64,000 nucleotides of DNA from Planctomycetota bacterium (GCA_038231435.1 JBBRLJ010000001.1:64001-128000); one strand, 5' to 3'. Positions 3,971 to 52,317 are shown, counted from the stretch's first letter. Notes: a model not told the origin generated them from the sequence alone. A program made the numbers and translations.

Positions 3971-6565
3971 ATGCGATCCCTACTCTCCATCCTCGTCCTC
4001 ATCACCGCCACGGCAGCGCTCGCACAGGGCGCGGTGACAGCCTCGGACTTCGCGTACGCGGACTACAGCGCTGGCGGAGTGGATGTGCCATATCGGCTCT
4101 ATACGCCGCCCGGAATGCAGGCCGGCGTGAAGTATCCGCTGATCCTGTTCCTGCACGGCGCGGGTGAGAAGGGAACCGACAACAACCTGCAGCTCGCATA
4201 CAATTGCCAAGGTGCGTTCAATTTCCTGTCGGACGCGAATCAGGCGAAGCAGAAGTGCCTGTTCATGGCCCCGCAGTCGTGGGCTACGGACTGGAGCGAT
4301 CCACAGATGCAGACGAACCTCGCAACGATCATCCAGCAGTTGATCGCGTCCGCATCGGTCGACGCCAATCGCGTGTATGTCACCGGAATCTCGATGGGCG
4401 GAGGCGGGACCTGGCAATGCCTGGCCAGCAATCCGGACGTGTTCGCGGCAGCGATTCCGCAGAGCGGCTGGGGCTGCGGTAATTACGCGGCGTTCAAGGA
4501 TAAGCCGCTGTGGTGCTTCCACGCGGCGAACGATGGCACGGTGGGCGTCGGGGCTGAAGATGGGCCCATCAACGAGCTGCGTTTCCTCGGAGGCAACCCG
4601 ATCTACACGCGCTACGACGGTGGCGGTCACGGCATCTGGCAGACGGCATACGCCACCCCCGGACTGTTCGACTGGTTGATCGCCCAGCGCCGCGGAGTGA
4701 GGGCGAATGCCGCGCCCCTGGTCGCATTCACGTCGCCGACCAACGGCACCTCGTTCACGACGTCGCAGAGCTATGTGACGTTCACCGGAACCGCGACCTC
4801 GTCGGGCGCGATTTCCAGCATCACCTACCAGTTCGGCGAGACGTGGGATGCCGCTTTCCAGACCGGCACCGCTGCGGGAGCATCGGCGTGGTCGTTCGGC
4901 ATCTCGATGCCAGCAGTCAGCACCACGCTGAATCTGCGCGCCATGGCGATCGGAACCAGCTGGTCCTCGCTCGGCGGCAATACCACATACAGCGCATCAA
5001 TGTCCGTTACGCGACAGAACGGCGTGAGCGACACCGTTGCGCCGGCGATCACCATTACCGGTCCCACGAGCGCGACCTCAGCGACCTCGTCGAGCGCGAC
5101 CTACGCCATCTCGGGCAGCGCCTCGGACAATGTCGGAGTCACAGGCATCACCTGGAGCAACAACCGCGGCGGCAGCGGTACGGCTGCCGGTTACGGCAGC
5201 TGGAGCGTCACCGGCATCTCGCTGCAAGGTGGGGCCAACGTCATCACCGTCACTGCGACCGATGCGGCTGGCAACACCGCATCGGACGCCATCACCGTCA
5301 CCTGGAACGCGCCTGATACCATCGCCCCGGCGGTGACGATCACCTCGCCGACCAGCGCAACGAGTTTCAACGCCTCAGCCGCGAGCATCGCCCTGGGCGG
5401 GACCGCCTCGGACAATATGGGCGTCACCAGCATTGGCTGGAGCAACGATCGTGGCGGCAGCGGCAGCGCGAGCGGCACCAACACCTGGAGCGTGGGATCG
5501 ATCGCGCTGCAGAATGGCGTGAACGTGATCACGGTGAGCGCACGCGACGTTGCCGGCAACAGTGGGTCAGACTCCATATCGGTGACCTGGAATCCGCCGA
5601 CTACTCCCCCGGTCGCCGGCGCGACATTCCGCGCCGAGTATTATCCCACGAACAATCTCACCGGCAGCCCGGTGCTGGCGTCGACCGCGAGCGTGTTCTT
5701 CGATTGGGGTTTCGGATCGCCCGCGGGCATGCCGAATGACAATTTCAGCGCGCGCTGGAGCGGCTCTGCCACGCCTACCGCTACGGGCACGTACACGTTC
5801 TTCGCCGCGGGAGACGATGGCATCCGCCTGTGGGTGAACGGAAGCCTGGTGATCGACGCATGGTACCCTCAAGGCGAGCGCGAATACGCCGCGGCGATCC
5901 CGGTCATCGCTGGCGTGCCGGTGTCGATCCGATTCGAGTATTTCGAACTCGGCGGCTCTGCCGTCGCGAAGCTGTCGTGGTCGGGACCGACCCAGGCCAA
6001 GCAGCCCATCCCGGCCTCTGCCGGTACGCCGGTCACCACCGTAGCGTACCGGGCTCTGATCGATTTCGGCGCCTGGAGCAAGCAGACTCCCGGATTCACC
6101 AACGTGTTCGACGAGACGGTCGTGCCCGTGGTCAGCGATACCGGTGCTTCGACCGGCGCCAGGGTCGTGATCACGGATTCGTTCGTCAGCGTAAATGAGA
6201 ACGGAGTGGTTGCCCATGACCTGTATCCAGGCACGGCGCAATCGGATACGCTGTACGTCGACGCGGTGAATAATCCCTATGCCGAAGTCCAGCTGCAGAG
6301 CCTGAACCCCGGCATGACCTATGATGTCACGCTGTTCGCGTCTCGAGGTGGCGTGAACGATGACCGCTCGAAGGTCTACACCGTCGGTGGCTCGTCGCAG
6401 GTCCTCAACGCTGCCAACAACACCAATCGCGTGGTGCGATTCGTCGGCATTCGTGCCGGAGCGGATGGCATCATCCGCATCGGCGTGGCCGCTGCTGCTG
6501 GATCCCCGTATGGGTACCTCGGCGTGGTCGAATTGATCGCGCACGCGCCAGTCGGCAATGGCTGA
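3971..6565 (+). CDS. Secreted multidomain alpha/beta-hydrolase (esterase or predicted peptidase) with Ig-like repeats and a PA14 domain
   Basis: RBS AAGGAGG; signal peptide; YPLILFLHGAGE, RVYVTGISMGGGG (GxSxG), HAAND and GGHGIW triad; Ser/Thr-rich Ig-like repeats (DTVAPAITIT.../DTIAPAVTIT...); PA14 motif FDWGFGSP..DNFSARWSG..DDGIRLWVNG. Confidence 0.85.
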   Translation: MRSLLSILVLITATAALAQGAVTASDFAYADYSAGGVDVPYRLYTPPGMQAGVKYPLILFLHGAGEKGTDNNLQLAYNCQGAFNFLSDANQAKQKCLFMAPQSWATDWSDPQMQTNLATIIQQLIASASVDANRVYVTGISMGGGGTWQCLASNPDVFAAAIPQSGWGCGNYAAFKDKPLWCFHAANDGTVGVGAEDGPINELRFLGGNPIYTRYDGGGHGIWQTAYATPGLFDWLIAQRRGVRANAAPLVAFTSPTNGTSFTTSQSYVTFTGTATSSGAISSITYQFGETWDAAFQTGTAAGASAWSFGISMPAVSTTLNLRAMAIGTSWSSLGGNTTYSASMSVTRQNGVSDTVAPAITITGPTSATSATSSSATYAISGSASDNVGVTGITWSNNRGGSGTAAGYGSWSVTGISLQGGANVITVTATDAAGNTASDAITVTWNAPDTIAPAVTITSPTSATSFNASAASIALGGTASDNMGVTSIGWSNDRGGSGSASGTNTWSVGSIALQNGVNVITVSARDVAGNSGSDSISVTWNPPTTPPVAGATFRAEYYPTNNLTGSPVLASTASVFFDWGFGSPAGMPNDNFSARWSGSATPTATGTYTFFAAGDDGIRLWVNGSLVIDAWYPQGEREYAAAIPVIAGVPVSIRFEYFELGGSAVAKLSWSGPTQAKQPIPASAGTPVTTVAYRALIDFGAWSKQTPGFTNVFDETVVPVVSDTGASTGARVVITDSFVSVNENGVVAHDLYPGTAQSDTLYVDAVNNPYAEVQLQSLNPGMTYDVTLFASRGGVNDDRSKVYTVGGSSQVLNAANNTNRVVRFVGIRAGADGIIRIGVAAAAGSPYGYLGVVELIAHAPVGNG

Positions 6566-24022: not shown

Positions 24023-24343
24023 TCAGTCCGCGCGGACATCCTGCGACGGATAGAACCAGCGGGCGGTCGGCATGCTTGAATCCGCTGGCGGTCGCGGCTC
24101 GACCGCCTCCACATCGACCGCGGTCACCTCACTGCATGCGAAGCTCGTCTCCTCGCCGGAATCATCCCGCAGGGTGGCGTGCCGCGCCGACGACAGCAAT
24201 TCCCACCAGTAGCCGACGAGCGCGACCTCGTCCGCGCAGTAGCGGCTGCGGAAACGCACCCGCCGTCCATCCATGAGCGTGAGGCTGAGCATGCGCTGTT
24301 GGAGCGAGCCGAGCTTCGCCTGGCGGTAGATGCGGGTCGTCAC
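24023..24343 (-). CDS. Hypothetical protein
   Basis: 106-aa ORF filling the intergenic space, co-oriented downstream of the desaturase. Confidence 0.5.
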   Translation of the reverse strand: MTTRIYRQAKLGSLQQRMLSLTLMDGRRVRFRSRYCADEVALVGYWWELLSSARHATLRDDSGEETSFACSEVTAVDVEAVEPRPPADSSMPTARWFYPSQDVRAD

Positions 24344-24418: not shown

Positions 24419-25141
24419 CTAGAGGTGGCTGGCCACACCCCCGCCCGACGGGACTCCGGGGCACGCAATCCGCTCCACGCCGACCCCCCCTGGCGGGTCC
24501 GATCCGATGATGGCCTCGGTCCCGAACAGCGCATCCCAGAACGGGAACGTTCCCGCGAAGTTCCGCCCAACCTGGGACTCGTGATGGCGATGGTGGAAGG
24601 CCGGCGTCGCCACCACCCGCTCCAGCAAGCCGAAGCGCACACTGACGTCCGCGTGCAGGAACGACGTCCACGCCTTGCGGATCAGCACCAGGGCGATGAC
24701 GTCCGACAGCGAGGCGCCGAGGACGGCGCCGGGGATGCCAGCGGCGACGCCGTGCAGGACGAAGTCCACGGGATGCTGGCGCCAGGCCTCGAGCCAGTTC
24801 AGCCCAACCGAGGCATGGTGCACGCGATGGATGCGCCACAACCACGGGACCCGGTGCATGGCGCGATGCAGCAGATAGCCCAGCAGATCCGCGAGCACGA
24901 AGGCGGCGATGAGCCGGCCAGGAGTGGCGGCTTCGCTGCTGTCGCACCAGCGTTCGAGCGGCGCGAGTAGCGCTGGAGCAAGTGCGTTCATCAACAGCGT
25001 GTTGCCCACGAAGAGCACGACGCACAGCAGCGCGGCGAGCGCCGGCTGCCGATGTCCTCGCTTGGGGAAGATCCGTTCGAGCGGGATGATCGTCCCCGCG
25101 CACAGCGCGAGGAACACCACGGCTCCGAGCAACGTCGGCAT
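24419..25141 (-). CDS. Sterol desaturase / fatty acid hydroxylase superfamily membrane di-iron enzyme
   Basis: His boxes HRAMH, HRVHH, FLHAD and HHRHH plus NFAGTFPFWDALFGT; transmembrane helices; GGAG RBS before ATG 25141. Confidence 0.92.
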   Translation of the reverse strand: MPTLLGAVVFLALCAGTIIPLERIFPKRGHRQPALAALLCVVLFVGNTLLMNALAPALLAPLERWCDSSEAATPGRLIAAFVLADLLGYLLHRAMHRVPWLWRIHRVHHASVGLNWLEAWRQHPVDFVLHGVAAGIPGAVLGASLSDVIALVLIRKAWTSFLHADVSVRFGLLERVVATPAFHHRHHESQVGRNFAGTFPFWDALFGTEAIIGSDPPGGVGVERIACPGVPSGGGVASHL

Positions 25142-25160
25142 GGCCCGTCTCCGCTGTGAC

Positions 25161-25529
25161 TCAATAGCCTTCGTACGCGCCGAACGCGATCGGACCGCCA
25201 CCCATCGATGCCCACTGGAGCAGGGCATACACGCCGACGATCGCCACGATCCCGCTCAGCAGCAGCATCCGTACGCGATGCCTGGCGTTTGCCGGCGCGC
25301 GCGGCGCCAGTCCGATCGGGGGCGGTGCCACGGCGGGCAGCCTGATCAGCGCCGGAGACGCCACCGATGGCGCCGTGCCGGCGTTCTTGGCCATCCATTG
25401 CTTGAGGATGTCACCCCATGCCTTCGGGACGTGACGTGGTCCAGCCTGCTGCTGGCGTCGCGCGCCGAGCAGGGCGGGATTCACGATCCAGCGCGATCCG
25501 TGGCTGAAGGCTTCCGTGCGGTGGTTCAT
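25161..25529 (-). CDS. Small single-TM protein ending in IAFGAYEGY
   Basis: Strong RBS AGGAGAGGAG; 122 aa; TM segment MLLLSGIVAIVGVYALL; C-terminal motif shared with the neighbouring gene; stop lies 19 nt upstream of the desaturase start. Confidence 0.75.
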   Translation of the reverse strand: MNHRTEAFSHGSRWIVNPALLGARRQQQAGPRHVPKAWGDILKQWMAKNAGTAPSVASPALIRLPAVAPPPIGLAPRAPANARHRVRMLLLSGIVAIVGVYALLQWASMGGGPIAFGAYEGY

Positions 25530-25545
25530 GGTCGGCTCCTCTCCT

Positions 25546-25583
25546 GGCGATGGCTGTCCGGACTGGCGATGGCTACCCGGACT
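25546..25583. repeat. 19-bp tandem direct repeat (17/19 identical)
   Basis: GGCGATGGCTGTCCGGACT / GGCGATGGCTACCCGGACT immediately upstream of the RBS of the 25161-25529 gene. Confidence 0.8.
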
Positions 25584-25725
25584 ACACGACAAGATACGCG
25601 CGGCTTCCCGTGCCGTTCTGGTGAAAGATGTCCCTCGATTGCCACGGACGCGCAATCTCGGGCGGGATCGTCCCGCACTTCGGCAATGCCTGTGACCCAG
25701 CCGAGCTCTCGGCGATCCAGCTCCC

Positions 25726-26052
25726 TCAGTAGCCCTCGTACCTGCCGAAACTGATCCTGGGGCGTTCGATCGTGGAGCCCTGCCCGGCTCGTATTCCAGC
25801 TGTCGACGCGGCGGTCGACGACCGGGGGCCCGGCGCGGCGGCACGGGGCGGGGTGGCCGCGGCAGTCGCGGACGGCGCGTCTTCCATCCGCGCCGGCGCC
25901 TGGGCCCGCGTCACAGGCGATGCCGACACCGGGGGCAGCGGGCGCGCCTTCACGACGACGACCGCCGCCGCGCCCAGCGAGAAGATCATGGACAGCACGC
26001 CCAGGAGGACGGTGCCATCGGATGGCCGTGGCTTACGGATGCGGCGGTGCAT
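25726..26052 (-). CDS. Small single-TM protein ending in ISFGRYEGY
   Basis: GGAGG RBS; 108 aa; basic N-terminus, TM VLLGVLSMIFSLGAAAVVVV, Pro/Ala linker, conserved C-terminal motif. Confidence 0.75.
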   Translation of the reverse strand: MHRRIRKPRPSDGTVLLGVLSMIFSLGAAAVVVVKARPLPPVSASPVTRAQAPARMEDAPSATAAATPPRAAAPGPRSSTAASTAGIRAGQGSTIERPRISFGRYEGY

Positions 26053-26143
26053 GGATCGCCTCCATCACCATGAACGCGGCTTGGACGCCCAGGTTCACCG
26101 CGCGGTGGCTGGATTCCGCGCATTCCAGCGTCACCATCCGCTC

Positions 26144-26548
26144 GTGCTCATCACTCCGATCACCATCCGCCTGATCGTCTATGGCCAGAAGGCCAATGTC
26201 TCCGCCATCCGCGGCCGCGCCGCGGATCTCCTGAAAGAGGAGCACGGCAAGGCCGATGGATCGTGCTTCGTCGAGACACCTGCGGCCGATGTCCACGCCG
26301 AGATCATCGCCACGCGCTGGGACGACGAGGTGGTGCTCAAGAAGCCCACCCCGAGCCAGGCCGGCATCGTCATCACGCTGCCAGAGGTCCACGAACGCCT
26401 GACCACCGAGTGGCTCCATGAATTGCCGGTGGCCAAGACCTGCGTCGCGTTCGCTACCTGGAACGGCGCGCGTGATCCCGTGTCCTGGCAGCTGCTGATG
26501 GCCCTGGGTGGACACTGGTCGGAAAATCGCCCGTTCGGATCGACGTGA
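26144..26548 (+). CDS. Hypothetical protein
   Basis: 3' part of track ORF 25772-26548 has globular composition and GC-rich third positions; likely GTG start at 26144. Confidence 0.55.
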   Translation: MLITPITIRLIVYGQKANVSAIRGRAADLLKEEHGKADGSCFVETPAADVHAEIIATRWDDEVVLKKPTPSQAGIVITLPEVHERLTTEWLHELPVAKTCVAFATWNGARDPVSWQLLMALGGHWSENRPFGST

Positions 26549-26662: not shown

Positions 26663-28351
26663 CTATAGCAACGACAGCTGCTTCGCTCCGTGCGTCGTGC
26701 CCAACACCCGGTCGACGAGATCACGAGCCTCGGACAGGTACCAGCCACGATCGATGACCGCGAGGTCCACCCGCGCGGGGTCCCACACCGGGATCGCTTG
26801 GGTGGCGACGGTAGAGGTCTCGCGATGTCCGGTCGATTGGACGATCGGCTCGCCGCCGCGTCCGACCACCCATCTGACCACGCGCTCGTCGACTGCGCGA
26901 CCGCCCCAGCTCAGATCCCGCGCCCGGCGCCACATGGCGAAATCGGTCACCACCGTGGATCCGGCGATCACGTCCTCCATGCGGCGCTGGTGGACGAGGT
27001 GTTCGACGGCCGCCCGCGCGACCACTGGAGCCGCCGAGCGCCGTGACGCCTCGGCCGCGTCGTCGTCCCCACCCGCGAACCTGCCCTTGGCCTTCACCAC
27101 CTCGCCATCCGGCCCCTGGGCCACGTAGTCATTCACGCTGGTGCGCCAGATCCGCCGGTAGGCGGTGCGCTCGAGCGTCAGGCCGGTCAGCGTCTCCCAC
27201 GCCGATGCACCAGCCTCGGCGTCGCCACGCACCACCACACCATCGGTGTTGGCCGAAATCAGCTCGCAACCGCTGGCCACGAGCCCATCGATCAGCTGCA
27301 GGAGCCTGAGTTGGCCGGTGAGCACCACGCGTAGCGCGTCCGGTGGCGAGAACAGTCCGCTGCGCGAATTCCCGAGCTGCCCGTACAAGCTGTTGATGAC
27401 GTATTTCAGCGCCTGGCTCGCGGTGTGGTCGCGCGCGCGTTTGGCTTCGAGGCGACGCGCCATCAGCAGCCCGACGCGGCGCGAGAAATCCGGCAGCTGC
27501 GGCGGCGAGATGGCGTCGGCCGCAATGATGGATGGATAGTACGAGGCGACGTCCAGATCGACGAGCGGCCCGTCGATCGCTCCCGCCGGATCGCACGAAT
27601 GCAGGCCGCCGACGCCGAGCGCGAGTTCGGCGGAACCAACAGTGAAGGTGCCTCCGGCGGCGGGCGCGAGCGACAGCCGGCCGCGATCGTCCCAGCGCAC
27701 CGAGCCATCGAGGATCGAGCGCATCGCCGCGCGCGCGTCGTCTCCTGTGGCCTGGAAACGCTCCGGCCGGCTCAGCAGTTCGCTCACCGGAACCTCGCCG
27801 GGCACCACCGCGCGCTGCACCTGATCGCGGCGCAAGCCCTCGAGCACCACCGTCTCGGCCAGCTGGCCGGTCGCCGACAGCCACGCGGCATCGCCGATCC
27901 ACGGATGATAATCGAGCAGGCGCTGGCGCACCGCCACCTGGCCGGCGTACCGCTCCATGAGTCGCGCGATGGTCTCGGCCGCCACCAGCGCGTCGCCCAT
28001 CGGCAGCGCCAGGCCGGCCCTGCAACACGCCCCGTCCAGATCGCCGACGATGATGCTGGCGTCGATGGTACGGGCCCATCGGCGCGGGTACCGGCGCAGC
28101 GCGCGGACCAGGTGGCGGTCTGCAGGCGCGCCACCGGCGAAGACCGAGGGCGCCCCCTCGTCACCGGCGGCGATCGCGCACAGCAATCGCTCGCCATCCC
28201 ACGGCGACAACTCGCCCTGGGACTCCGTAACGATGGTGAGGCCAGGGTCGTCGAGCAGCTGCCGGGCCACGTCCCAAGGCAGGATCCGGCTCCTGCCAGC
28301 GGCATGCACGGCGAGACCCGCGCCAGTAGGCAGGACGGCTGCGGTGGGCAC
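26663..28351 (-). CDS. Family B DNA polymerase (phage-like 'NTDG' type) with a degenerate N-terminal exonuclease region
   Basis: LGVGGLHS; motif A VDLDVASYYPSII; motif B RRLEAK..QALKYVINSLYGQLG; VVLTGQLRLLQL; motif C ISANTDGVVV; SVNDYVA; KAKGRF. Start uncertain (GTG 28351 avoids overlapping the kinase gene). Confidence 0.85.
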   Translation of the reverse strand: MPTAAVLPTGAGLAVHAAGRSRILPWDVARQLLDDPGLTIVTESQGELSPWDGERLLCAIAAGDEGAPSVFAGGAPADRHLVRALRRYPRRWARTIDASIIVGDLDGACCRAGLALPMGDALVAAETIARLMERYAGQVAVRQRLLDYHPWIGDAAWLSATGQLAETVVLEGLRRDQVQRAVVPGEVPVSELLSRPERFQATGDDARAAMRSILDGSVRWDDRGRLSLAPAAGGTFTVGSAELALGVGGLHSCDPAGAIDGPLVDLDVASYYPSIIAADAISPPQLPDFSRRVGLLMARRLEAKRARDHTASQALKYVINSLYGQLGNSRSGLFSPPDALRVVLTGQLRLLQLIDGLVASGCELISANTDGVVVRGDAEAGASAWETLTGLTLERTAYRRIWRTSVNDYVAQGPDGEVVKAKGRFAGGDDDAAEASRRSAAPVVARAAVEHLVHQRRMEDVIAGSTVVTDFAMWRRARDLSWGGRAVDERVVRWVVGRGGEPIVQSTGHRETSTVATQAIPVWDPARVDLAVIDRGWYLSEARDLVDRVLGTTHGAKQLSLL

Positions 28352-28433
28352 GTGGAAAGCGTCGACGAGCGGAGGATGAAGGAACCGAATTGTCGCCGCC
28401 CATCGGCCCTGGCGACCGATCCATGACGCCCGA

Positions 28434-31337
<2,904 letters not shown>

Positions 31338-31440
31338 GTCATCACGAGTATAACCCACGAAGCTTCCCCCGTCCATGCGATGCGGCCGATTCCCCAGGCG
31401 CGGATTCCGGGCCGCGCTAGCGTGGCCCATCACGACGAGC

Positions 31441-32436
31441 ATGCGCAAGCGCCCAACACCCACACCGCATCCGCGTCGCACGCGACCCCGCGGCGGACCG
31501 CCGTCATCCACCCATGCCCAAGGTGGGGCCGCCACCGCGGGTGCGGAGCGCTACGACCTCGCGCGACTCGCCAAGGCCCATCCTCCCTTGCAGCGCTGGC
31601 TGCGCCGCTCCCCCTCGGGCGATGACACCATCGACTTCTCCGACGCGCGCGCGGTGCGCGATCTCAACCATGCGATCGTCGCCGACGCCTACGGGATCAC
31701 GGCGTGGGACGCGCCCGCGGACACGCTCTGTCCTGGAGTTCCCGGACGTCGCGACTACGTGCGCGGGATCGCCGGACTGCTCGCCGGCGATCGCGGCGGG
31801 GTGATCCCGCGCGGGCTGGACGTGCGTGTGTTCGACGTGGGCGTGGGAGCCGCCTGCATCTATCCGATCATCGGGCGAGGCGAATACGGCTGGCGGTTCA
31901 TCGGTTCGGACGTTGACGCCGTCGCCATCGCGAGCGCCAAGCGCATCGCGCAGGCGAACCTGCTCCTGCGCGACGCCGTCGAGATCCGCATCCAGTCCAC
32001 CGCCGACCAGGTGCTGCTCGGGGTGCTTGGGCCCCGCGAGCGCGTCGACGCGGTGATGTGCAATCCCCCCTTCCACGCCTCCCGCGAGGAGGCGCGCGCC
32101 GGCACGCGCCGCAAGTGGACGAACCTCGGGCGCGACGCGCTCGCGCGCAAGCCGAACCCGACCACCAATTTCGGCGGCCGCGACGCCGAGCTGTGGTGCC
32201 CGGGCGGCGAGGTCGGCTTCATCGGCAGGATGATCGCCGAGAGCGCCCAGGTGCCGTTGGCGAGCGGCTGGTTCACCGCCCTGCTGTCGCGAGCATCGCA
32301 TGTGCCCGCGATCACGCGCGCCTGGGCGCGGGTGAATCCGGCCGAGACCCACGTGCTGCCGATCAGTCGCGGTCAGAAGCAGAGTCGCATCGTCGCCTGG
32401 ACCTTCCTCGCGGCAGCGGCGCGCGCCGCACGCTGA
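31441..32436 (+). CDS. rlmF: 23S rRNA (adenine1618-N6)-methyltransferase
   Basis: TIDFSD..AVRDLN, LCPGVPGRRDY, DVGVGAACIYPIIG..EYGWRFIGSD, MCNPPFH, NFGG..ELWCPGGE, GQKQSRIVAWTF. Confidence 0.92.
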   Translation: MRKRPTPTPHPRRTRPRGGPPSSTHAQGGAATAGAERYDLARLAKAHPPLQRWLRRSPSGDDTIDFSDARAVRDLNHAIVADAYGITAWDAPADTLCPGVPGRRDYVRGIAGLLAGDRGGVIPRGLDVRVFDVGVGAACIYPIIGRGEYGWRFIGSDVDAVAIASAKRIAQANLLLRDAVEIRIQSTADQVLLGVLGPRERVDAVMCNPPFHASREEARAGTRRKWTNLGRDALARKPNPTTNFGGRDAELWCPGGEVGFIGRMIAESAQVPLASGWFTALLSRASHVPAITRAWARVNPAETHVLPISRGQKQSRIVAWTFLAAAARAAR

Positions 32437-33829: not shown

Positions 33830-34015
33830 AGGCTCGCATGATCCCGACGGTGTCGCCCGGCCTAGCGAATTGCCCGTGCACCATCTCCGGCGCGCGCGAA
33901 TGCCACTGACCGTTTCATTCGTCCCATGGACCATCGCACGGACCCGGTCGGGCACGCCAGCAGCCACGCTGTGAACTTCGCCACGCGGCATGCGTTCTCC
34001 TGGAGGGGCGAGAGC

Positions 34016-37000
34016 ATGGGACGCCGCACTGGGATCATCGCGACGGTCGCCGTCTGCATCGCCATGCTGGCGATCGCCGTGGCGCGTTTCCACACCACGC
34101 GTCCGGACGCTGACGGAGCGAGCGCGACGGGCGCGGGCTGGCGAGCGGAACCGACCGAGCTGGTGGCGCGCATCGAGCATCTCGCGGACGCTGGAGAAGC
34201 CGACGCGGCAGCGAGCGTGCTCGCGCAGCTGCTCAAGCGTGACGGCATCGCCGCAACCGGGCTCGACGATCGCGCGCGCATGGCGGCAGCGCGCGGCTAC
34301 CTGAAGGCGAAGCGCACCGATGAGGCCCTCGCGCAGGTCGCGGCCATCCCCTGGGCGGACAAGAGCCGGGCGGTCGCGGCGCAGATCCTCGGCCTCGAAT
34401 TGGCGATACGTTGGCAAGGTCTGTTCGATCGCGATGGCCACCTGGCCCCGGCGGCGCTCGGCCCGCGTTTGTCCCCCGAGGCTCCGCAAGGCCTGCCCAA
34501 GGGCGCGTGGCTGCAGCGCTGGGAGCACTACCGCGCGCTCGCCGAACTCATCGATCGCGGCGCACACATGGTTTCTTCCGAAGGTGGCGCGGTCGCGATG
34601 CCGGCGTCGGCCGCGATGATGCAACTCGCCCGCCACGATCACGGGGATCTCAGCGAATCGGATTTCGCTGCGGCGATGGGCCCTACGCGCGACTGGCAGC
34701 CCGAGCTGGCCCTGGCGATGTGCCGGCTGCGCCTGCAGGAGTACGCCATCCCCGAGGCGATCGCGGCGGCCGAGGCGCTGTGGTCGGGGCATCCCGCCAG
34801 TGGCGAGGCTGCCGAGGCGTACCATCTGCTGCGTGTTTGGCAGCTCGAGCGCGGCCTGGCCTCGGGACACCTGCCGTTGTGGCGGTATCCCGAGGTGGAC
34901 GCTCGGCTCGACGCCCTGGCGACCATCTATAAAGACGCGGCCAGAAGCGCGGATATCGCGGTGGCGAGGATCCAGGAGCTCAACCAATGGGGCATGGCGA
35001 GCGCTATTGCTGCGCAGGCCGCGAAGGCCGCGAAGCCATTGCTGGATGCGGTCGAGACCGCGATCCCAACGGCCGAGATCGCGAGGAACGAGGATGCGAT
35101 CGACGACCGGCCCGAGCGGCGGGTCTTCGCCCTGGCGCTGGCATGGAACGGGCTGGAGTTGGCCAGCGAACGGCGCGAGGTGCCGCTCGGCGAACCCGCC
35201 ACGCTGACCATCACCTCAGTGCATCGCGGCCCGCACACCGTGCGCATCCATCGCCTCCCCAACCGCAAGACCTGGGATGTGATGTGCACCAAACCATCCA
35301 ACGCGTTGCTGCCAGCGGAAGCGGTCCACACCAGGGAACTGCAGGGTGGAGACTGGTCATCCCTCGGCGAGCCCTGCGCGATGCCCTTCAACGTGGATGG
35401 CCTGGGCGAGGGCTTCTATGTCGCCACCGTGGCCGTGCGCGGATGTCCGACCACGGTGCTCACGGGCTTCGTGGTCGTGGACCCGGACCTGTACGTGATC
35501 GCTGGACGCGACGAGGTGGTCACCTGGGTGGTCAGCCGCGCCAGCGGCAAACAGAAGTCCGGCGAACCCCTGCGCGCGACGATGAGCCTGGTGCGCGACC
35601 CAGCGCAAGCGGCTGGATCGGCATGGGACGGCGCAGACCCGGTGTGGCGTGCGGGCTTCACCGAGGCCTTCACCGATGAGCCGTCCGCCGCATTCGTGAC
35701 CGACGCGCTACGACCGGTGTTCGCAGCTGGGCGCACGGCCGGCCTCGCGGCCTCGGCCACTGATCCCCCCTTCTCCGCCGAGCTGGATGCGGTGAGTGGC
35801 GAGGATGGCATCGGCCGCGTGGCGCTGCCCGTGAGACTGCGCGACCGTTCCTACACAGTGGCCGTCTCGATCTCGCGCCCCGATGTGATGGTCAGGCGCG
35901 AGGCCCGCGTAGGACCGGCGGCAGATTGGACCGCGAAGGCCGTGGCGTGGGCGGACCGGCCCCTGGTGCGTCCGGGAGAGACCGTGCATTGGAAGATGCT
36001 GATGCGCGATCTCGATGGCTACAGCTACCGGCTGCCGGTGGGCGAGATCGAGCTGACTCTGCGCCTCGACGACCAGGTGCTGTGGAGTGGAACCCAGGCG
36101 ATCACGGATGCCGGCACGGTGGGCGGAGAGCTCGCCATCCCGCCGGGAGCCGCCGAGGGCCGGCTCACCGTATCAGCGGGAACGTCCGGGCCGCGCCACG
36201 CGCTCGCCGGCATCGAACGGGCGGCGTTGCCGAGCGTGCGCTATGACGTGATCGAGGACGAGACGTCGCGCTTGCGCGCCGGGGAATCCATCCGCACCGG
36301 CATCGGCATCCATGACGCCGCCGGTGAGCCCATCGCCGGCGTCGAAGTCACGTGCTCGGTCACCGCGTACCTCGACGGCGTGGCCACGCCGTGCCCGCAG
36401 CCTGGCATAACCACCAGCGACGTCGCGGGTATTGCCCATGTGGTGATCGCCACCATCCCCGATGCCCAGGCGCTGTACCGCGCATATTTCTCGTTCACCG
36501 TCGATCACCATCGCTACCGCATCGAGCGCTCATGGCAGGCGAGCACCTTTCCCTTCCCCCTCGAGGCGGTGGTGCGCAACCGCCAGCTCTCGGCCGTGGA
36601 TTCGGTGCGCGTCGAGCTGCGCTTCCCGGCCGAGGCGCAGGTGACGGTGCGCCTGGTGCGTGGCGAGCAGGCACTAGGCGAGGATCAGCATCCGCGCGGC
36701 GCCTGGCCGCTGTGGTGCGAAGCGCACGTGCCGCTGGATCGTTCGACGCAGAACGCCGACGCGGTCGAGGTATCTACCGCGGTCGCGGGAGGCGGCAGGG
36801 CGCGCCTGCGCATCCCGATCACCATTGCGCCGCCACCGATATCCGCCGGTGCGCCCGAGGTGCAGCTCTCGCCGGACCGGCTGCGCGTCGAACCGGAGCA
36901 GACGCTGGGACTGACTCTCGGCGTGAATGTTCCGGGACGCGATGTGCTGCTCGTCGGCGGCTCGCGCTCGGTGCAGTTGCTCCGCACCACCCGCCTGGAC

Positions 37001-40000
37001 ACGCCGGCGCACCGAGTGGAGGTGGCGATCGCCAGCGACTGGGCGCCCAACATCTCGCTGCAGGCGGTCGCCTACCTTCCCATCCGCGGATTCACGGCGA
37101 CATCGCGCCAGGACATCGAAGTCAGCCCGGTCGACCGCCTGCTGCGCGTGGTGGTCACTCCCGAGCGCGAGGACTACCATCCTGGTGACGACGTCGCGGC
37201 GAGCGTGCTGATCAGCGATTGGAAGGGCAGGCCCGCGGGCGGGGTATCAGTCAGCATCGGCGTGGTCAATGAGCTCATCTACCAGCTCGCCGATGACGCC
37301 ACGCCCGACCTGTGGACCTATTTCTATGGTTACCGGCGCGCGTACGGCTTGGTCGAGGGCACGGCCACCGCACTGCCCTTTCCGTCTGCGTCGTTGTGGC
37401 ACGGCGTCGCGTGGCGCTGGCAGTCGCCCGAGGGCTTCGCCTGCATCGGCTCGGAGATGGCGCTCTCAGCGATGAACGGCGCGCGCTACGGCGGCGGTCG
37501 CGCGCGGTCGATCTCGAGGGGCGGCGGTGCGTCGGCGAGCGAAGCGGCCATGCTCGCTTTGGAATCGGGCGTCGCCATCGCCTGGGTCGGCGACCTGCGC
37601 ACCGACGCGGATGGGCGGGCGACGATACGCTTCACCATGCCGGCGAACACCGGCCGTTTCCGCTGCACCGCCCGCGCCAGCTCCACCGACGCGCAGCTGA
37701 TGGTCGGCGAGGTGCGCATGGGCATCACCAGCCGTCAACCCTTCGGCTGCGCGCTACGCCTGCCCGAGACCGCGCGCGAGGGAGACGTGGTGCAGGCCGA
37801 ACTGGCGCTCGCCAGCTACGACGACGCGCCGCTGGCGCTGGCGCTGGAATTGCCGGACGGCTCGCGGCGCGAACTCACGTTGCCGGGGCGCGCCCGGCGC
37901 GCGCTCGCAGTGCCGGTGCGCATCGCCGCAGGAGACGGCGAGATACGCGTCGCTGGCGGACAGGTCGGCCGCGTCGTCACCCTGCGCGCATCCGCGGTGG
38001 CGGTGGCTGGCGCAGCCAAGCTCGAGACCCGCATCGTGGCGGCAGCGCACTGCCTGGTGATCGCCGCCGGCATACCACGCACCTGGTCGGGATTGGTCAG
38101 CGCGGGCGCGGATGGCTCCATCAGCCTACCGTGGCCGGTGCCCGAGGGCGCGGCGCTACGCGTGCGCTGTCGCGCTTGGCCAGATGCCTCGGCGCGACGC
38201 GACGCGCTCGCCGCCAGCGCGCGCGCGGGCGTACCCGCGGGAGCGGTCGCCGCCTTGGCATGGCTCGAAGCGCCCGCCGGCGAACGGCGCGCACGAGCCC
38301 TGGCGACGTGCTGGTCCACGCTCGACAAGTACATCCCTTCGGCGCTCGCGCGCCAAGCCGCCGCTCGCCGTGGCGAGGCCTTCGGATCCCTGGGCGCCGT
38401 ACCCGACGGCGTCGACGGCGATTGGCTGCTCGCGCGCGGTCGCTTCGATGGCCTGCTGCTCGGTGCGCCGCGCGAACGCGGCCATGTCGCCAGCGCGGGC
38501 AGTGATCGGATCGCGGCGGTGGCCATAGCGCTCGCCGAGAGTTGGCCCGAGGGCCATGCCTGGTGGCCTGGCATCCTCCAGGAGCTGGACCGCGCCAGCG
38601 ATGGCCAGGGCACAGATCCAACGCTGTTCAGTCTCGCGCTCGGCATCGACGCGGCGCGCATGGCGGGCGATGAGTCCGCCCGTACCCGCTTGGCGGCCCG
38701 GCTCGGGCGCCTGCCGTGGACCTGCGAGTTCGATCAAGCCCTGGCCCTGGTATCCATCCCGTCGGGACCGGGATCGATCGGCGGCGCGGTCCTCGTCCAG
38801 GATCGCGCGGGAGTCGGTGCAGCCGCCGCGACCGACATCGCCACCCTCGCCACCATCGCCACCCTCGACGCAGGCGCCGCGAGCGAGTGGCTCGGCGTCG
38901 CCGGTCCGTCGTTCACGTTGTCATCGACGCCAGGCGCGCTCGCGGATCTGGAAGTGCTGATGCAGACACCGGCACCGCTGCAAGCGAAGTCCGTCCAGCT
39001 CAGCGCCACCTTCTACGAGCGCTGCGAGGACGGCGGCTACACCGCCGTCCCCGCCGGTCGAGCGCTCTGGCCCGGACGTCCGCTGGCGATGGCGATCGCA
39101 TCGCCACAGATGGCCGAGGTGGTGCTGCGCCTGCCGAGCCTGCTGCGCATCGCCCCCGAGGGCGGCGAGTTCCTCATCGTCGATGCCGAGCGGTCGTCGA
39201 TCAGGATCGACGGAGACATCCGCCTGGCCGCGAGCCTGCTCGAGGGTGGCGATCGTGATGGCGCCCTCGCCAGTTTCTTCTCCATGTGCCAGCGCAATCC
39301 GGTGCTGCGGACAGGCGTGGGCCAACGCCTGCCGGTGCATGGAGCGGATTCCAAAGCCTTGATCTCCGCGGATGGAACCCTGTCGTTAAGCGTCTGGCCC
39401 GGACAGCCCACGTTCATCGCGCTCGCGACCTCCAGCGAGGGAACGGCGGCCTGGCCGCCGCTCGCCATCACTGGCACCATGCCAGGCGCTCAAGAACGCC
39501 AGCAGGAGCTTCCCAGCATCGTGGTGGGTGTCGGCGACATCGCGCCCCTAGCAGCACCGGAGATCGGCCTACCTGCGCGCGCACTCGCACGTCTGCGCCA
39601 CCTGGCCGCCGATGCGTCCACCGAGGACCTGAGCGCGCTGCTGCTCCAGATGCAGGACCTCGATGTCGACGACGATCCCCGCATCGCGCTGCTCGACCGG
39701 CACGCGGCGCACGATCCAGCGGCGCTGCTGGCGCATCCCCTCTCTGGGGTCCCGGGACACTGGTCGACGGCCGCGCTGCGCGCCTGGAGCGACGGCGACT
39801 TGATGCTGGCGGTGGACACTCCTACTTTGAAGCGCTGGTTGAGCCTCATGGATGGGGGCAGGAACCGCGCGACCGGGCTACAAGATGTTCCGGATGCCGG
39901 AGCGGAACTGGTCGCGGGGGTGGATTGGACCGCCGAGCTCGCACACCCCACCATGCGCACGTTGATCCTGCTCGCCGAGGCCGATGCCGCGCTGCGCAGG

Positions 40001-40636
40001 GAGATCGAGGTGCGCCTGCCGACCTCGATGGCGACGGCGCCGCGCGTAGTCTCGACCGCCAGGGACTGGTTCAGGCGTCTTGGCGCGCTCGGTCTCGCCC
40101 CGGCGCGGGACTACGACACCTGGGTCTGGGAGCAGGAGCTCGATGCGGATCTGCAGTCGACACTGGGATATCCAAGCGGGGTCGACGGCTGGGTCGCCTT
40201 CCTGCGCACACGCTGCGGGCTCGAGGTGCGCATCGGCACGGGGGTACCTGTCGAGATCCCCGGCATCGACCAGGTCTCGGGCCCGCGGCTGGGCGCATCC
40301 TTGCTCACGACGTGCGGATATGCCCTGCAACGTGTGGGCCCCGCGCTCGAGATTCGTCCGGCGCGGGGATTCATCCTCCAGGAACACCTCCTGACCATCA
40401 GCATCGATGTCACCGACGAACGCCTCGATACGGTTGTCGCCGACCTCGATACGCTGCTCGCCAATCGCGGCCTGCCGCCGCTGGAGGTGGACCCCGCATT
40501 CCATGGCGGCGATACGCGAGTCACGTTCGCCTGCAAGGAAGCGGACTGGCGGAACGCGGTGACATCGTTGGCGAGCGTGATCGGCGCGACGGTTGCATTC
40601 GACGGGAATCATGCGGCCCTGCGCCACGCGCATTGA
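34016..40636 (+). CDS. Giant alpha-2-macroglobulin (MG2/A2M) family protein, thioester motif absent
   Basis: N-terminal TM/signal and TPR-like region; ADRPLVRPGETVHWK (MG2), WAPNISL, REDYHPGD, VSIGVVNE, LRTDADGRATIRFTMPANTGRFR (A2M), LRLPETAREGD; no CxEQ. Confidence 0.85.
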   Translation: MGRRTGIIATVAVCIAMLAIAVARFHTTRPDADGASATGAGWRAEPTELVARIEHLADAGEADAAASVLAQLLKRDGIAATGLDDRARMAAARGYLKAKRTDEALAQVAAIPWADKSRAVAAQILGLELAIRWQGLFDRDGHLAPAALGPRLSPEAPQGLPKGAWLQRWEHYRALAELIDRGAHMVSSEGGAVAMPASAAMMQLARHDHGDLSESDFAAAMGPTRDWQPELALAMCRLRLQEYAIPEAIAAAEALWSGHPASGEAAEAYHLLRVWQLERGLASGHLPLWRYPEVDARLDALATIYKDAARSADIAVARIQELNQWGMASAIAAQAAKAAKPLLDAVETAIPTAEIARNEDAIDDRPERRVFALALAWNGLELASERREVPLGEPATLTITSVHRGPHTVRIHRLPNRKTWDVMCTKPSNALLPAEAVHTRELQGGDWSSLGEPCAMPFNVDGLGEGFYVATVAVRGCPTTVLTGFVVVDPDLYVIAGRDEVVTWVVSRASGKQKSGEPLRATMSLVRDPAQAAGSAWDGADPVWRAGFTEAFTDEPSAAFVTDALRPVFAAGRTAGLAASATDPPFSAELDAVSGEDGIGRVALPVRLRDRSYTVAVSISRPDVMVRREARVGPAADWTAKAVAWADRPLVRPGETVHWKMLMRDLDGYSYRLPVGEIELTLRLDDQVLWSGTQAITDAGTVGGELAIPPGAAEGRLTVSAGTSGPRHALAGIERAALPSVRYDVIEDETSRLRAGESIRTGIGIHDAAGEPIAGVEVTCSVTAYLDGVATPCPQPGITTSDVAGIAHVVIATIPDAQALYRAYFSFTVDHHRYRIERSWQASTFPFPLEAVVRNRQLSAVDSVRVELRFPAEAQVTVRLVRGEQALGEDQHPRGAWPLWCEAHVPLDRSTQNADAVEVSTAVAGGGRARLRIPITIAPPPISAGAPEVQLSPDRLRVEPEQTLGLTLGVNVPGRDVLLVGGSRSVQLLRTTRLDTPAHRVEVAIASDWAPNISLQAVAYLPIRGFTATSRQDIEVSPVDRLLRVVVTPEREDYHPGDDVAASVLISDWKGRPAGGVSVSIGVVNELIYQLADDATPDLWTYFYGYRRAYGLVEGTATALPFPSASLWHGVAWRWQSPEGFACIGSEMALSAMNGARYGGGRARSISRGGGASASEAAMLALESGVAIAWVGDLRTDADGRATIRFTMPANTGRFRCTARASSTDAQLMVGEVRMGITSRQPFGCALRLPETAREGDVVQAELALASYDDAPLALALELPDGSRRELTLPGRARRALAVPVRIAAGDGEIRVAGGQVGRVVTLRASAVAVAGAAKLETRIVAAAHCLVIAAGIPRTWSGLVSAGADGSISLPWPVPEGAALRVRCRAWPDASARRDALAASARAGVPAGAVAALAWLEAPAGERRARALATCWSTLDKYIPSALARQAAARRGEAFGSLGAVPDGVDGDWLLARGRFDGLLLGAPRERGHVASAGSDRIAAVAIALAESWPEGHAWWPGILQELDRASDGQGTDPTLFSLALGIDAARMAGDESARTRLAARLGRLPWTCEFDQALALVSIPSGPGSIGGAVLVQDRAGVGAAAATDIATLATIATLDAGAASEWLGVAGPSFTLSSTPGALADLEVLMQTPAPLQAKSVQLSATFYERCEDGGYTAVPAGRALWPGRPLAMAIASPQMAEVVLRLPSLLRIAPEGGEFLIVDAERSSIRIDGDIRLAASLLEGGDRDGALASFFSMCQRNPVLRTGVGQRLPVHGADSKALISADGTLSLSVWPGQPTFIALATSSEGTAAWPPLAITGTMPGAQERQQELPSIVVGVGDIAPLAAPEIGLPARALARLRHLAADASTEDLSALLLQMQDLDVDDDPRIALLDRHAAHDPAALLAHPLSGVPGHWSTAALRAWSDGDLMLAVDTPTLKRWLSLMDGGRNRATGLQDVPDAGAELVAGVDWTAELAHPTMRTLILLAEADAALRREIEVRLPTSMATAPRVVSTARDWFRRLGALGLAPARDYDTWVWEQELDADLQSTLGYPSGVDGWVAFLRTRCGLEVRIGTGVPVEIPGIDQVSGPRLGASLLTTCGYALQRVGPALEIRPARGFILQEHLLTISIDVTDERLDTVVADLDTLLANRGLPPLEVDPAFHGGDTRVTFACKEADWRNAVTSLASVIGATVAFDGNHAALRHAH

Positions 40637-51409: not shown

Positions 51410-52317
51410 GGAGGGACACCGAGGCGCTGGCTGATCGGCACGGGACGCTTGCTGAGGTAATTCACCAGCAATGGATGACTGACGGCCTGCGCTTCCCAAG
51501 CCGGAGCCAACGGCGCGAGCAGCGATGCCGTCCGCGGGTCTTGCAGGAGGGCGCGCAGCGCGCGGCGGTCGATGCGGTATGGTTGGCGCAGCCCGCGAAA
51601 CTCCACACCGGGACCGATCGGATGGAAGACGAAACCGACACTGCGTGCGAGCTGCTGCAGGCGCGGTTCCATCAGAGCGAGGATGTAGTCCAACCGCGCA
51701 TGGACGGCGAGATGCGCAGCAGACAACCACAGGAACGAAGCGAGATTCTGGCGATGCTGGCTTTCCTCGCGCCAGCGGACCGCATCGATAGCCGCGGGCG
51801 GCCGACAGTCCTGCGAACGCGTGAAGCGTCGGAACGGCGCAACGATGCAGAAGCGCGATATCTCGGTGTATCCAAGGCGATCGCTGCCATCACGCGGCAG
51901 CATGCCCGTCTCCAGATGGGTGCAGACCTCCTCGAGATGGAACGGCGCCGCCAGGCATTGGGGATCGGCGAGCATCAGCCGGAAGCAGCCGATCGGCATG
52001 CCGGTGGCACGGTAATAGGCGACCACGCTCACCGAACGCATATCCGCGGCGTCGTATTCCAGATGATCTGGAAATCGCCCAGCCGGCTCGTAACCCAACT
52101 CATCGCAGTACACTTGCCAGCGCACCGAGAACGCGTCGCGCTCGGTGCTATCATCGGTCGCGACGCGCAGCTCGAAGATCTCGTCGATGCCGTGCTGGGG
52201 AGGCAGCACGCCGTCGGGCACGATTGGATCGGGCATCACCAGCGACGGCATGCGCTGGTAATGGAACGCCGGCACCAGCCGATTCGCGAGCGGAGTGATG
52301 GTCAGCGCCGCGCTCAC
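51406..52317 (-). CDS. GNAT N-acyl amino acid synthase (FeeM / exosortase-associated acyltransferase-like)
   Basis: AFSVRWQVYCDELGYE, LEYDAADMRS, IGCFRL, EISRFCIVAPFRR, ALMEPRL, PIGPGVEFRGLRQPY; GTG start overlaps the ACP stop (GTGA). Confidence 0.85.
   Translation of the reverse strand: MSAALTITPLANRLVPAFHYQRMPSLVMPDPIVPDGVLPPQHGIDEIFELRVATDDSTERDAFSVRWQVYCDELGYEPAGRFPDHLEYDAADMRSVSVVAYYRATGMPIGCFRLMLADPQCLAAPFHLEEVCTHLETGMLPRDGSDRLGYTEISRFCIVAPFRRFTRSQDCRPPAAIDAVRWREESQHRQNLASFLWLSAAHLAVHARLDYILALMEPRLQQLARSVGFVFHPIGPGVEFRGLRQPYRIDRRALRALLQDPRTASLLAPLAPAWEAQAVSHPLLVNYLSKRPVPISQRLGVPP

Follow-up and report, generated by a model that had tools for sequence, protein, structure and literature searches.

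Why do two dissimilar small membrane proteins share nothing except their last nine residues, and what function does such a protein have together with the membrane oxygenase encoded directly after it? The question was raised by a locus in a 64,000-nucleotide (nt) stretch of DNA from a Planctomycetota bacterium (GCA_038231435.1, JBBRLJ010000001.1:64001-128000; hereafter the window), which an initial annotation had singled out as a candidate peptide-modification or sorting system. Membrane His-box di-iron oxygenases of the FA2H, ERG3/ERG25, CrtZ and OlsE type are generally seen as lipid enzymes that work alone, an electron donor being their sole requirement. At this locus and its relatives, one bacterial hydroxylase clade is inherited together with a tiny membrane protein, of which only a nine-residue tail ending in a free tyrosine is conserved. 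These tail-Tyr small proteins, as we call them, are a real, previously undescribed family of single-pass inner-membrane proteins, and the two small open reading frames (ORFs) of the window, ORF A and ORF B, form with the hydroxylase gene one real, co-inherited cassette. The reading that we favor for the function of the pair, at a probability of about 0.45, takes the small protein for a partner or regulator of the hydroxylase, tethered in the membrane, whose tail would dock at the outer face of the inner membrane.

Two small ORFs with a common tail precede a hydroxylase gene

The window belongs to a genome assembly of 5,198,390 bases (G000, 87.6% complete). The features of the three-gene array, all on the minus strand, are given below with lengths in amino acids (aa); TM stands for transmembrane and RBS for ribosome-binding site.

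26059..26063, minus strand: GGAGG, RBS-like, 6 nt ahead of the ORF A ATG (read from the sequence)
25726..26052, minus strand: ORF A, tail-Tyr small membrane protein, 108 aa, ending ISFGRYEGY-stop; basic N-terminus, one TM helix, Pro/Ala-rich disordered linker and C-terminal tail (sequence and AF2)
25945..26019, minus strand: predicted TM helix of ORF A, residues 12-36 (AF2/DSSP and hydropathy)
25726..25755, minus strand: tail motif of ORF A, I-S-F-G-R-Y-E-G-Y and stop (sequence)
25536..25545, minus strand: AGGAGAGGAG, RBS-like, 6 nt ahead of the ORF B ATG (read from the sequence)
25161..25529, minus strand: ORF B, second tail-Tyr protein, 122 aa, ending IAFGAYEGY-stop; 85-aa N-terminal region without relatives, TM helix and 18-residue tail (sequence)
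25218..25274, minus strand: predicted TM segment of ORF B, residues 86-104, the top hydrophobic 19-mer (hydropathy)
25161..25190, minus strand: tail motif of ORF B, I-A-F-G-A-Y-E-G-Y and stop (sequence)
24419..25141, minus strand: FA_hydroxylase-family (His-box, di-iron type) integral-membrane enzyme, 240 aa, of the cassette-linked clade (PF04116 match)

The coordinates and products of both small ORFs agreed with those of the initial annotation, and the RBSs that it had reported were found as purine runs, each 6 nt before the ATG. The spacing of 19 nt between the ORF B stop codon (25161-25163) and the hydroxylase ATG (25141) was likewise as described, and this start is supported by the alignment of residue 1 with residue 1 of the homologs. 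When ORF A and ORF B were compared by BLASTP, only the last nine residues aligned, of which 7/9 were identical, as had been claimed. The tail codons differ synonymously (GAG/GAA and TAC/TAT) and the tail is kept in other genomes, indicating conservation at the protein level; this supports the proposal that the motif is a functional terminus. This genome holds the small gene in two very different versions.

In-frame GC content at the third codon position (GC3) was 0.84 for ORF A and 0.80 for ORF B, with values of 0.82-0.86 in neighboring genes. Six-frame translation of the whole 5,198,390-base genome detected "EGY-stop" and "G.YEGY" at the ends of ORF A and ORF B only. Because "EGY-stop" is unique to these two ORF ends genome-wide and the same tail stands at the same position in other genomes, the shared tail is not a chance match. 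A scan for consensus promoters and terminators gave 0 sites, and the sequencing runs matching the stretch were 5 DNA runs (sediment or soil metagenomes) and no RNA run.

The tail and the hydroxylase are linked in both directions

Scanning with the hydroxylase alignment, with one genome taken per species, yielded 51 loci with hydroxylase relatives. Directly upstream, 28 of the 51 loci carried a small ORF for a single-pass protein with the ending [KR]-[VIL]-x-F-G-x-[FY]-E-G-Y-stop or one closely resembling it. Among them, 21 loci carried a 57-119-aa ORF ending G-x-[FY]-E-G-Y-stop, and 7 further loci had variant tails in the same place, namely KFKFGRMDAY in three, FAFGAFDGC in one and, in three Kofleriaceae loci, GVAGY, GADEY or GWDGY immediately after a TM helix. 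Two loci came without upstream DNA, and the other 21, which had no such upstream ORF, were more distant hydroxylase relatives that matched mostly from about residue 64-88 on. The stop codon of the small ORF and the hydroxylase start were separated by only 0-4 nt in 15/21 loci. In the congeneric genome G002 (locus L002, identical with L021), the hydroxylase is 61% identical and its ATG abuts the stop codon of a 57-aa ORF ending ITVGTFEGY-stop. Nearly all positive loci were from Myxococcota metagenome-assembled genomes (MAGs), of Archangium, Myxococcaceae, Nannocystis/Nannocystaceae, Polyangia and Kofleriaceae, and in 3/3 Myxococcota genomes the motif pattern occurred exactly once per genome, at the cassette.

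The reverse test used a 20-base DNA pattern that was built only from the tail and run on metagenomes, in which it hit 12 loci. Ten of these encode family-type small proteins, and all ten (10/10) were followed within about 40 nt by a hydroxylase homolog of 44-54% identity; the remaining two carry an identical 23-aa ORF, with no TM helix and no hydroxylase. These data showed that the linkage of the small-protein family to the enzyme holds in both directions, and the co-localization of the motif with FA_hydroxylase genes that the initial annotation had envisaged proved to be tight. A metagenome search with a single protein query gave no matches.

Pattern scans were then made in the two phyla. Matches occurred in 11 of 301 Planctomycetota genomes, about the same rate as with the reversed control; a true cassette was found in 1/301, the window's own genome only, and the 4 other stop-ended matches had no hydroxylase. 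Among 121 Myxococcota genomes, 10 had matches, of which 4 were stop-ended, and the true case was found only in the centre genome, indicating that the cassette is sparse even in Myxococcota, with a phylum-wide pattern that misses MDAY-type variants.

The tail-Tyr proteins form a family of single-pass membrane proteins

A family profile of 23 small proteins was scored against 1.84 billion representative proteins. There were 87 matches at E<=1e-3 and 48 at E<=1e-10, with lengths of 57-168 aa and nearly all aligned to the last residue. Counting back from the C-terminus in 90 proteins, we found Y at position -1 in 88/90, G at -2 in 82/90, E at -3 in 83/90 (D in 6 more), F at -4 in 79/90 (Y in 5 more), G at -6 in 89/90, F at -7 in 68/90, V/I/L at -9 in 69/90 and R/K at -10 in 68/90. 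As judged from these sequences, the strictly conserved element is the extreme C-terminus only, [KR]-[VIL]-x-F-G-x-[FY]-E-G-Y-COOH.

We defined the family by a length of 57-168 aa, one hydrophobic helix, a C-terminus of G-x-[FYM]-[ED]-[GAS]-Y and a position directly upstream of a clade-specific PF04116 gene. ORF A belongs to it by its match to the family profile (E 2e-9; P0005). ORF B has the architecture and the tail, shows no similarity to the profile beyond the tail, and matched only itself in a word-based protein search. The description of the two as unrelated proteins should be qualified accordingly, ORF A being a detectable family member and ORF B sharing only tail and architecture.

That no family with this motif had been described was borne out by Pfam and NCBIfam, neither of which has a model matching the tail-Tyr small proteins, and no description of a protein family with this tail motif appeared in the parts of the literature that our search returned. 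Family members are annotated in their sources as "hypothetical protein" only. A word-based search with the 23-sequence alignment gave 5 matches, all of them query members, and the ESM Atlas gave no match above 0.80. In many database versions (P0002, P0019, P0020, P0025 and others) the start is placed at a Met within the TM helix (profile positions 20-92); gene callers thus often truncate the family, which provides an example of small-ORF families that suffer in this way.

The flank N-terminal to the helix was more positive than the C-terminal flank in 66/68 proteins, from which an N-in/C-out orientation is predicted, in line with the extracytoplasmic C-terminus that the initial annotation had predicted. 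AF2 modeling of ORF A with 64 aligned sequences gave a single helix (residues 12-36, pLDDT above 90), the remainder, tail included, being coil. Only 3-18 residues separate the TM helix from the tail in ORF B and the Kofleriaceae variants, and the tail thus appears to act at the outer surface of the inner membrane. At least four Lys/Arg residues stand ahead of the tail in 70/90 proteins, the planctomycete versions not being among them.

Short conserved C-terminal motifs of envelope proteins, partly from Myxococcota, are also known as sorting signals. In PEP-CTERM, GlyGly-CTERM, MYXO-CTERM and LPXTG signals, the motif comes first, a TM helix next and a basic tail last; a genome has many proteins that bear them, and a dedicated sortase to go with them. 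In contrast, the cassette motif forms the last 7-9 residues, comes after the TM helix and is tied to a hydroxylase. With two occurrences in this genome, one in each of three others and no NCBIfam match, we did not assign it to this class.

The linked hydroxylases form their own clade

The product of 24419-25141 matched PF04116 over profile positions 2-132 of 132 (E 2.8e-30; 105.9 bits, gathering cut-off 31). It contains the His boxes HRAMH, HRVHH and HHRHH (HxxxH, HxxHH and HxxHH type), from which di-iron binding is predicted, and H92, H96, H105, H108, H109, H123, H130, H163, H183, H186 and H187 were invariant in 21 sequences. In a quick maximum-likelihood tree of 56 hydroxylase rows, the window enzyme, those of 27 cassette loci and L027, for which there was no upstream DNA, made up one clade (SH-aLRT 99), with the window genome's own hydroxylase paralogs (L014 and L020) falling outside it. 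At their N-terminus, the enzymes of the clade share a conserved two-helix extension of about 75 residues (LLGxxVFLxLMAGLFVPLE...); non-cassette relatives do not align to the extension, and their alignment begins at about residue 75. Thus, the enzyme passes the gathering score and has the invariant His boxes of the superfamily that includes yeast Scs7p/FA2H, ERG3/ERG25, CrtZ and bacterial OlsE, whereas the extension and the tail-Tyr small protein encoded ahead of it set its clade apart. To our knowledge, no PF04116 member has been described with such a preceding small protein. The small-protein family may define a partner-dependent clade of FA_hydroxylase enzymes, as the sequences suggest.

One Myxococcaceae MAG carries two cassettes, on contigs L042 and L047, with the tails FDFGAFEGY and FAFGAFDGC. 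The two hydroxylases are sister rows in the tree, and this looks like a within-genome duplication in which one tail has lost the terminal Tyr.

In the sequence and the AF2 helices, the basic loop after hydroxylase helix 1 lies on the same side as the His boxes, which is presumably the cytoplasmic one. The AF2 model of the hydroxylase had a pLDDT of 79, and its three best Foldseek matches, all weak (E 0.7-1.7, TM-score 0.35), were Scs7p chains (4zr0 and 4zr1). Searching the PDB sequences with the hydroxylase profile gave 0 matches.

A membrane lipid is most likely the substrate of the cassette enzyme, by analogy with other PF04116 enzymes, since all characterized ones of which we know act on lipids. 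The best NCBIfam match was OlsE (NF052566, ornithine lipid hydroxylase); at 63.6 bits against a cut-off of 475, an OlsE equivalog role was not supported, and the OlsB-type domain PF13444 occurred in only 2/5 cassette genomes. A sterol is probably not the substrate in this organism. Squalene epoxidase (PF08491) was not found in the 87.6% complete G000 and gave only a 19.5-bit match in G002, and cyclase (PF13243) gave only weak matches of at most 32.5 bits in both genomes. With no squalene epoxidase and no strong cyclase in either, an ERG3/ERG25-type sterol substrate was rejected for the window genome.

Three further observations concern lipids. In the window, 51826-52122 (minus strand), about 26 kb from the cassette, matches Acetyltransf_5 (PF13444, OlsB-type N-acyltransferase; E 1.2e-9) inside a 494-aa open frame, which could be an ornithine or aminolipid synthase. 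The Archangium-type genome G312, which has the cassette, contains squalene/oxidosqualene cyclase and squalene epoxidase domains side by side (C90:193304-196676), which suggests a sterol pathway, unlike in the window's genome. In the Archangium-type locus L023, a neutral/alkaline ceramidase-family gene (PF04734, E 5e-34; 4080-5993, minus strand) is found on the strand opposite to the cassette and some 400 nt downstream of it, a possible hint of a sphingolipid context in that lineage only.

The small protein as a candidate partner of the hydroxylase

Small single-pass partners of membrane enzymes are known, such as CydX of cytochrome bd, KdpF and AcrZ, and in yeast Erg28 scaffolds the PF04116 enzyme Erg25. 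The cassette proteins resemble these in having about 100 aa or less, one TM helix, a place in the same operon and a frame abutting that of the membrane enzyme; they differ in that conservation falls on a linear C-terminal motif outside the membrane and not on the TM helix. Pfam and NCBIfam gave no matches, and no sequence relation to CydX, KdpF, AcrZ or Erg28 was found.

On the reading that we favor, the small protein would be a dedicated, stoichiometrically made partner of this FA_hydroxylase clade, either an accessory subunit or a regulator. It would have a cytoplasmic basic N-terminus, a single TM helix tethering it in the hydroxylase's own membrane, and an extracytoplasmic portion that is disordered. 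Its tail, which ends in a free Tyr carboxylate, would be a short linear motif that docks to the enzyme at the periplasmic surface of the membrane, possibly at the clade-specific two-helix extension; this binding could stabilize or gate the enzyme, or connect it with something in the envelope. As a subunit or regulator, the small protein would represent a new periplasmic-side control of a lipid oxygenase.

Several points weigh against this partner role. For an integral subunit it is unusual that the TM helices are only weakly conserved between subgroups and that the helix of ORF B does not resemble the rest. The very strict retention of Glu, Gly and the terminal Tyr, with free variation elsewhere, is also the pattern of cofactor-type precursor peptides. 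No enzyme position covaried between the FGRMDAY and FEGY groups, where one conservative L/V column differs. The Lys/Arg cluster before the tail (at least four K/R in 70/90) is awkward for a translocated segment. The topology is predicted from charge bias only, and direct binding, the binding site and the lipid substrate we likewise infer. A complex prediction for the hydroxylase and ORF A, both entered as alignments, gave a median score of 0.15 against a mark of 0.32, which speaks neither way.

The alternative that survives best, unlikely as we consider it, is that the tail is the substrate of the enzyme. In that case the small protein would be a precursor made by the ribosome, in which the membrane di-iron oxygenase hydroxylates, desaturates or cross-links a C-terminal Phe, Glu or Tyr; the outcome would be a modified peptide, tethered to the membrane or released, or a product akin to a cofactor, in loose analogy to PqqA or MftA. 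A near-invariant short core (Y 88/90, G 89/90, E 83/90) at the end of freely varying small proteins encoded directly upstream of an oxygenase fits such a scheme, as does the finding that the two divergent copies in this genome share the core only. Cleavage might occur at the Lys/Arg cluster before the core, and the linked enzymes are a clade of their own, marked by a specific N-terminal extension. The layout is indeed that of precursors of peptides made by the ribosome and modified after translation (RiPPs) or of cofactors, such as PqqA with PqqE and MftA with MftC: a small gene with a near-invariant Glu/Tyr C-terminal core and a variable rest, directly upstream of an oxidative enzyme. A short conserved-core precursor next to an enzyme is thus present, as a resemblance of layout only. 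The cassette enzyme is an integral-membrane His-box oxygenase whereas theirs are radical-SAM enzymes, and the cassette peptide has 57-168 aa, a TM helix and a tail predicted to be periplasmic.

This last point tells most directly against the tail as a substrate, because the predicted N-in/C-out topology places the tail opposite the His boxes. Furthermore, in the Archangium-type and Nannocystaceae-type loci and the window, only PF04116 was conserved, with no known or second maturase, no RiPP recognition element (RRE) or PqqD, and no protease, transporter or exporter in the conserved cluster. The usual ratio of small gene to enzyme is 1:1, with abutting frames. All PF04116 enzymes known to us as characterized act on lipids, and nothing tying such enzymes to peptides appeared in the portions of the literature that our search covered. 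It is improbable in our view that the tail is modified before or during export to give a tethered or released redox-active or signaling peptide. Were the tail a substrate, peptide modification would be new to the FA_hydroxylase superfamily, and the cassette would represent both a new chemistry of this kind and a new class of RiPP or cofactor.

More doubtful still is the proposal that an unlinked envelope factor, whether a PDZ-domain or tail-specific protease or another periplasmic receptor, recognizes the tail as a C-terminal signal. PDZ proteases recognize C-terminal aromatic tails, and the C-terminus here is free, aromatic and predicted to be periplasmic and disordered. It is equally doubtful that the small protein, read by such a factor, is a sensor or timer coupling the state of the envelope to the hydroxylase operon. 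Both versions leave unexplained the linkage to one hydroxylase clade in every family-type case found, and no PDZ or protease gene lies beside the cassette in the annotated loci, where the alpha-2-macroglobulin-like (A2M) gene that the window has 8 kb away is also without a counterpart.

That the small ORFs are non-functional, with the tail a remnant of duplication at the locus or an RNA or DNA element that merely happens to be read, is highly improbable: the ORFs of this genome are known from sequence alone and ORF B had no homolog outside it in a word-based search, but the tail is conserved at the protein level, with synonymous differences, over 28 genomes of two phyla and 10 metagenome contigs, both ORFs have coding-typical GC3 and RBS-like sites, and the motif is unique in the genome.

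Whether the small protein is a partner or a substrate, its family offers a clean, testable two-gene system; it comprises about 87 clusters, and Pfam and NCBIfam hold no model for it.

Gene context and origin of the cassette

Two annotated Myxococcota loci were compared with the window over 3-kb flanks, and nothing was conserved around the cassette besides the small gene and the hydroxylase. Neighbors in the Archangium-type locus are genes of the thioredoxin-like, GNAT, DUF1801, ceramidase and OsmC kinds, and those in the Nannocystaceae-type locus encode cytochrome c and an alginate-export porin. In the window there are genes for an AraC regulator, an esterase-like protein and a kinase, besides a polB-like ORF. 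The initial annotation had also pointed to an MG2/A2M gene. It exists, at 33926-40636 (plus strand), as a 2236-aa ORF with MG2, A2M and A2M bait-region domains, a bacterial alpha-2-macroglobulin-like protein, but only the small gene and hydroxylase are conserved in the two annotated loci, and a link of the A2M gene to the cassette was not supported, there being no counterpart within those 3-kb flanks. The earlier interpretation is supported in part, for its conserved functional tail, its hydroxylase linkage and the lack of a Pfam or NCBIfam family, and is not supported with respect to A2M.

The hydroxylases of the window and G002 grouped with that of a Myxococcaceae MAG whose tail is also YEGY (SH-aLRT 94). 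The DNA flanking the cassette in G002 has its matches on other G000 contigs, indicating that the window and G002 cassettes are not syntenic. This lack of synteny, the Myxococcaceae grouping and the sole true cassette among 301 Planctomycetota genomes together suggest acquisition from Myxococcota. Thus, the cassette in this planctomycete genus was probably acquired horizontally from Myxococcota, a direction of transfer that we infer.

Closer to the cassette, a 106-aa ORF downstream of it (24023-24343, minus strand) had no Pfam or NCBIfam match. Upstream lies a divergent ORF of about 150 aa (about 26096-26548, plus strand), which had no Pfam match and whose longest frame overlaps the ORF A start. 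A 635-aa ORF at 26663-28570 (minus strand) matched DNA_pol_B at a sub-threshold level only (E 7.6e-4; 18.8 bits against a cut-off of 23). The ORF at 28434-31535 (minus strand) encodes a Ser/Thr protein kinase of 1033 aa, whose long C-terminal region matches LRRs weakly.

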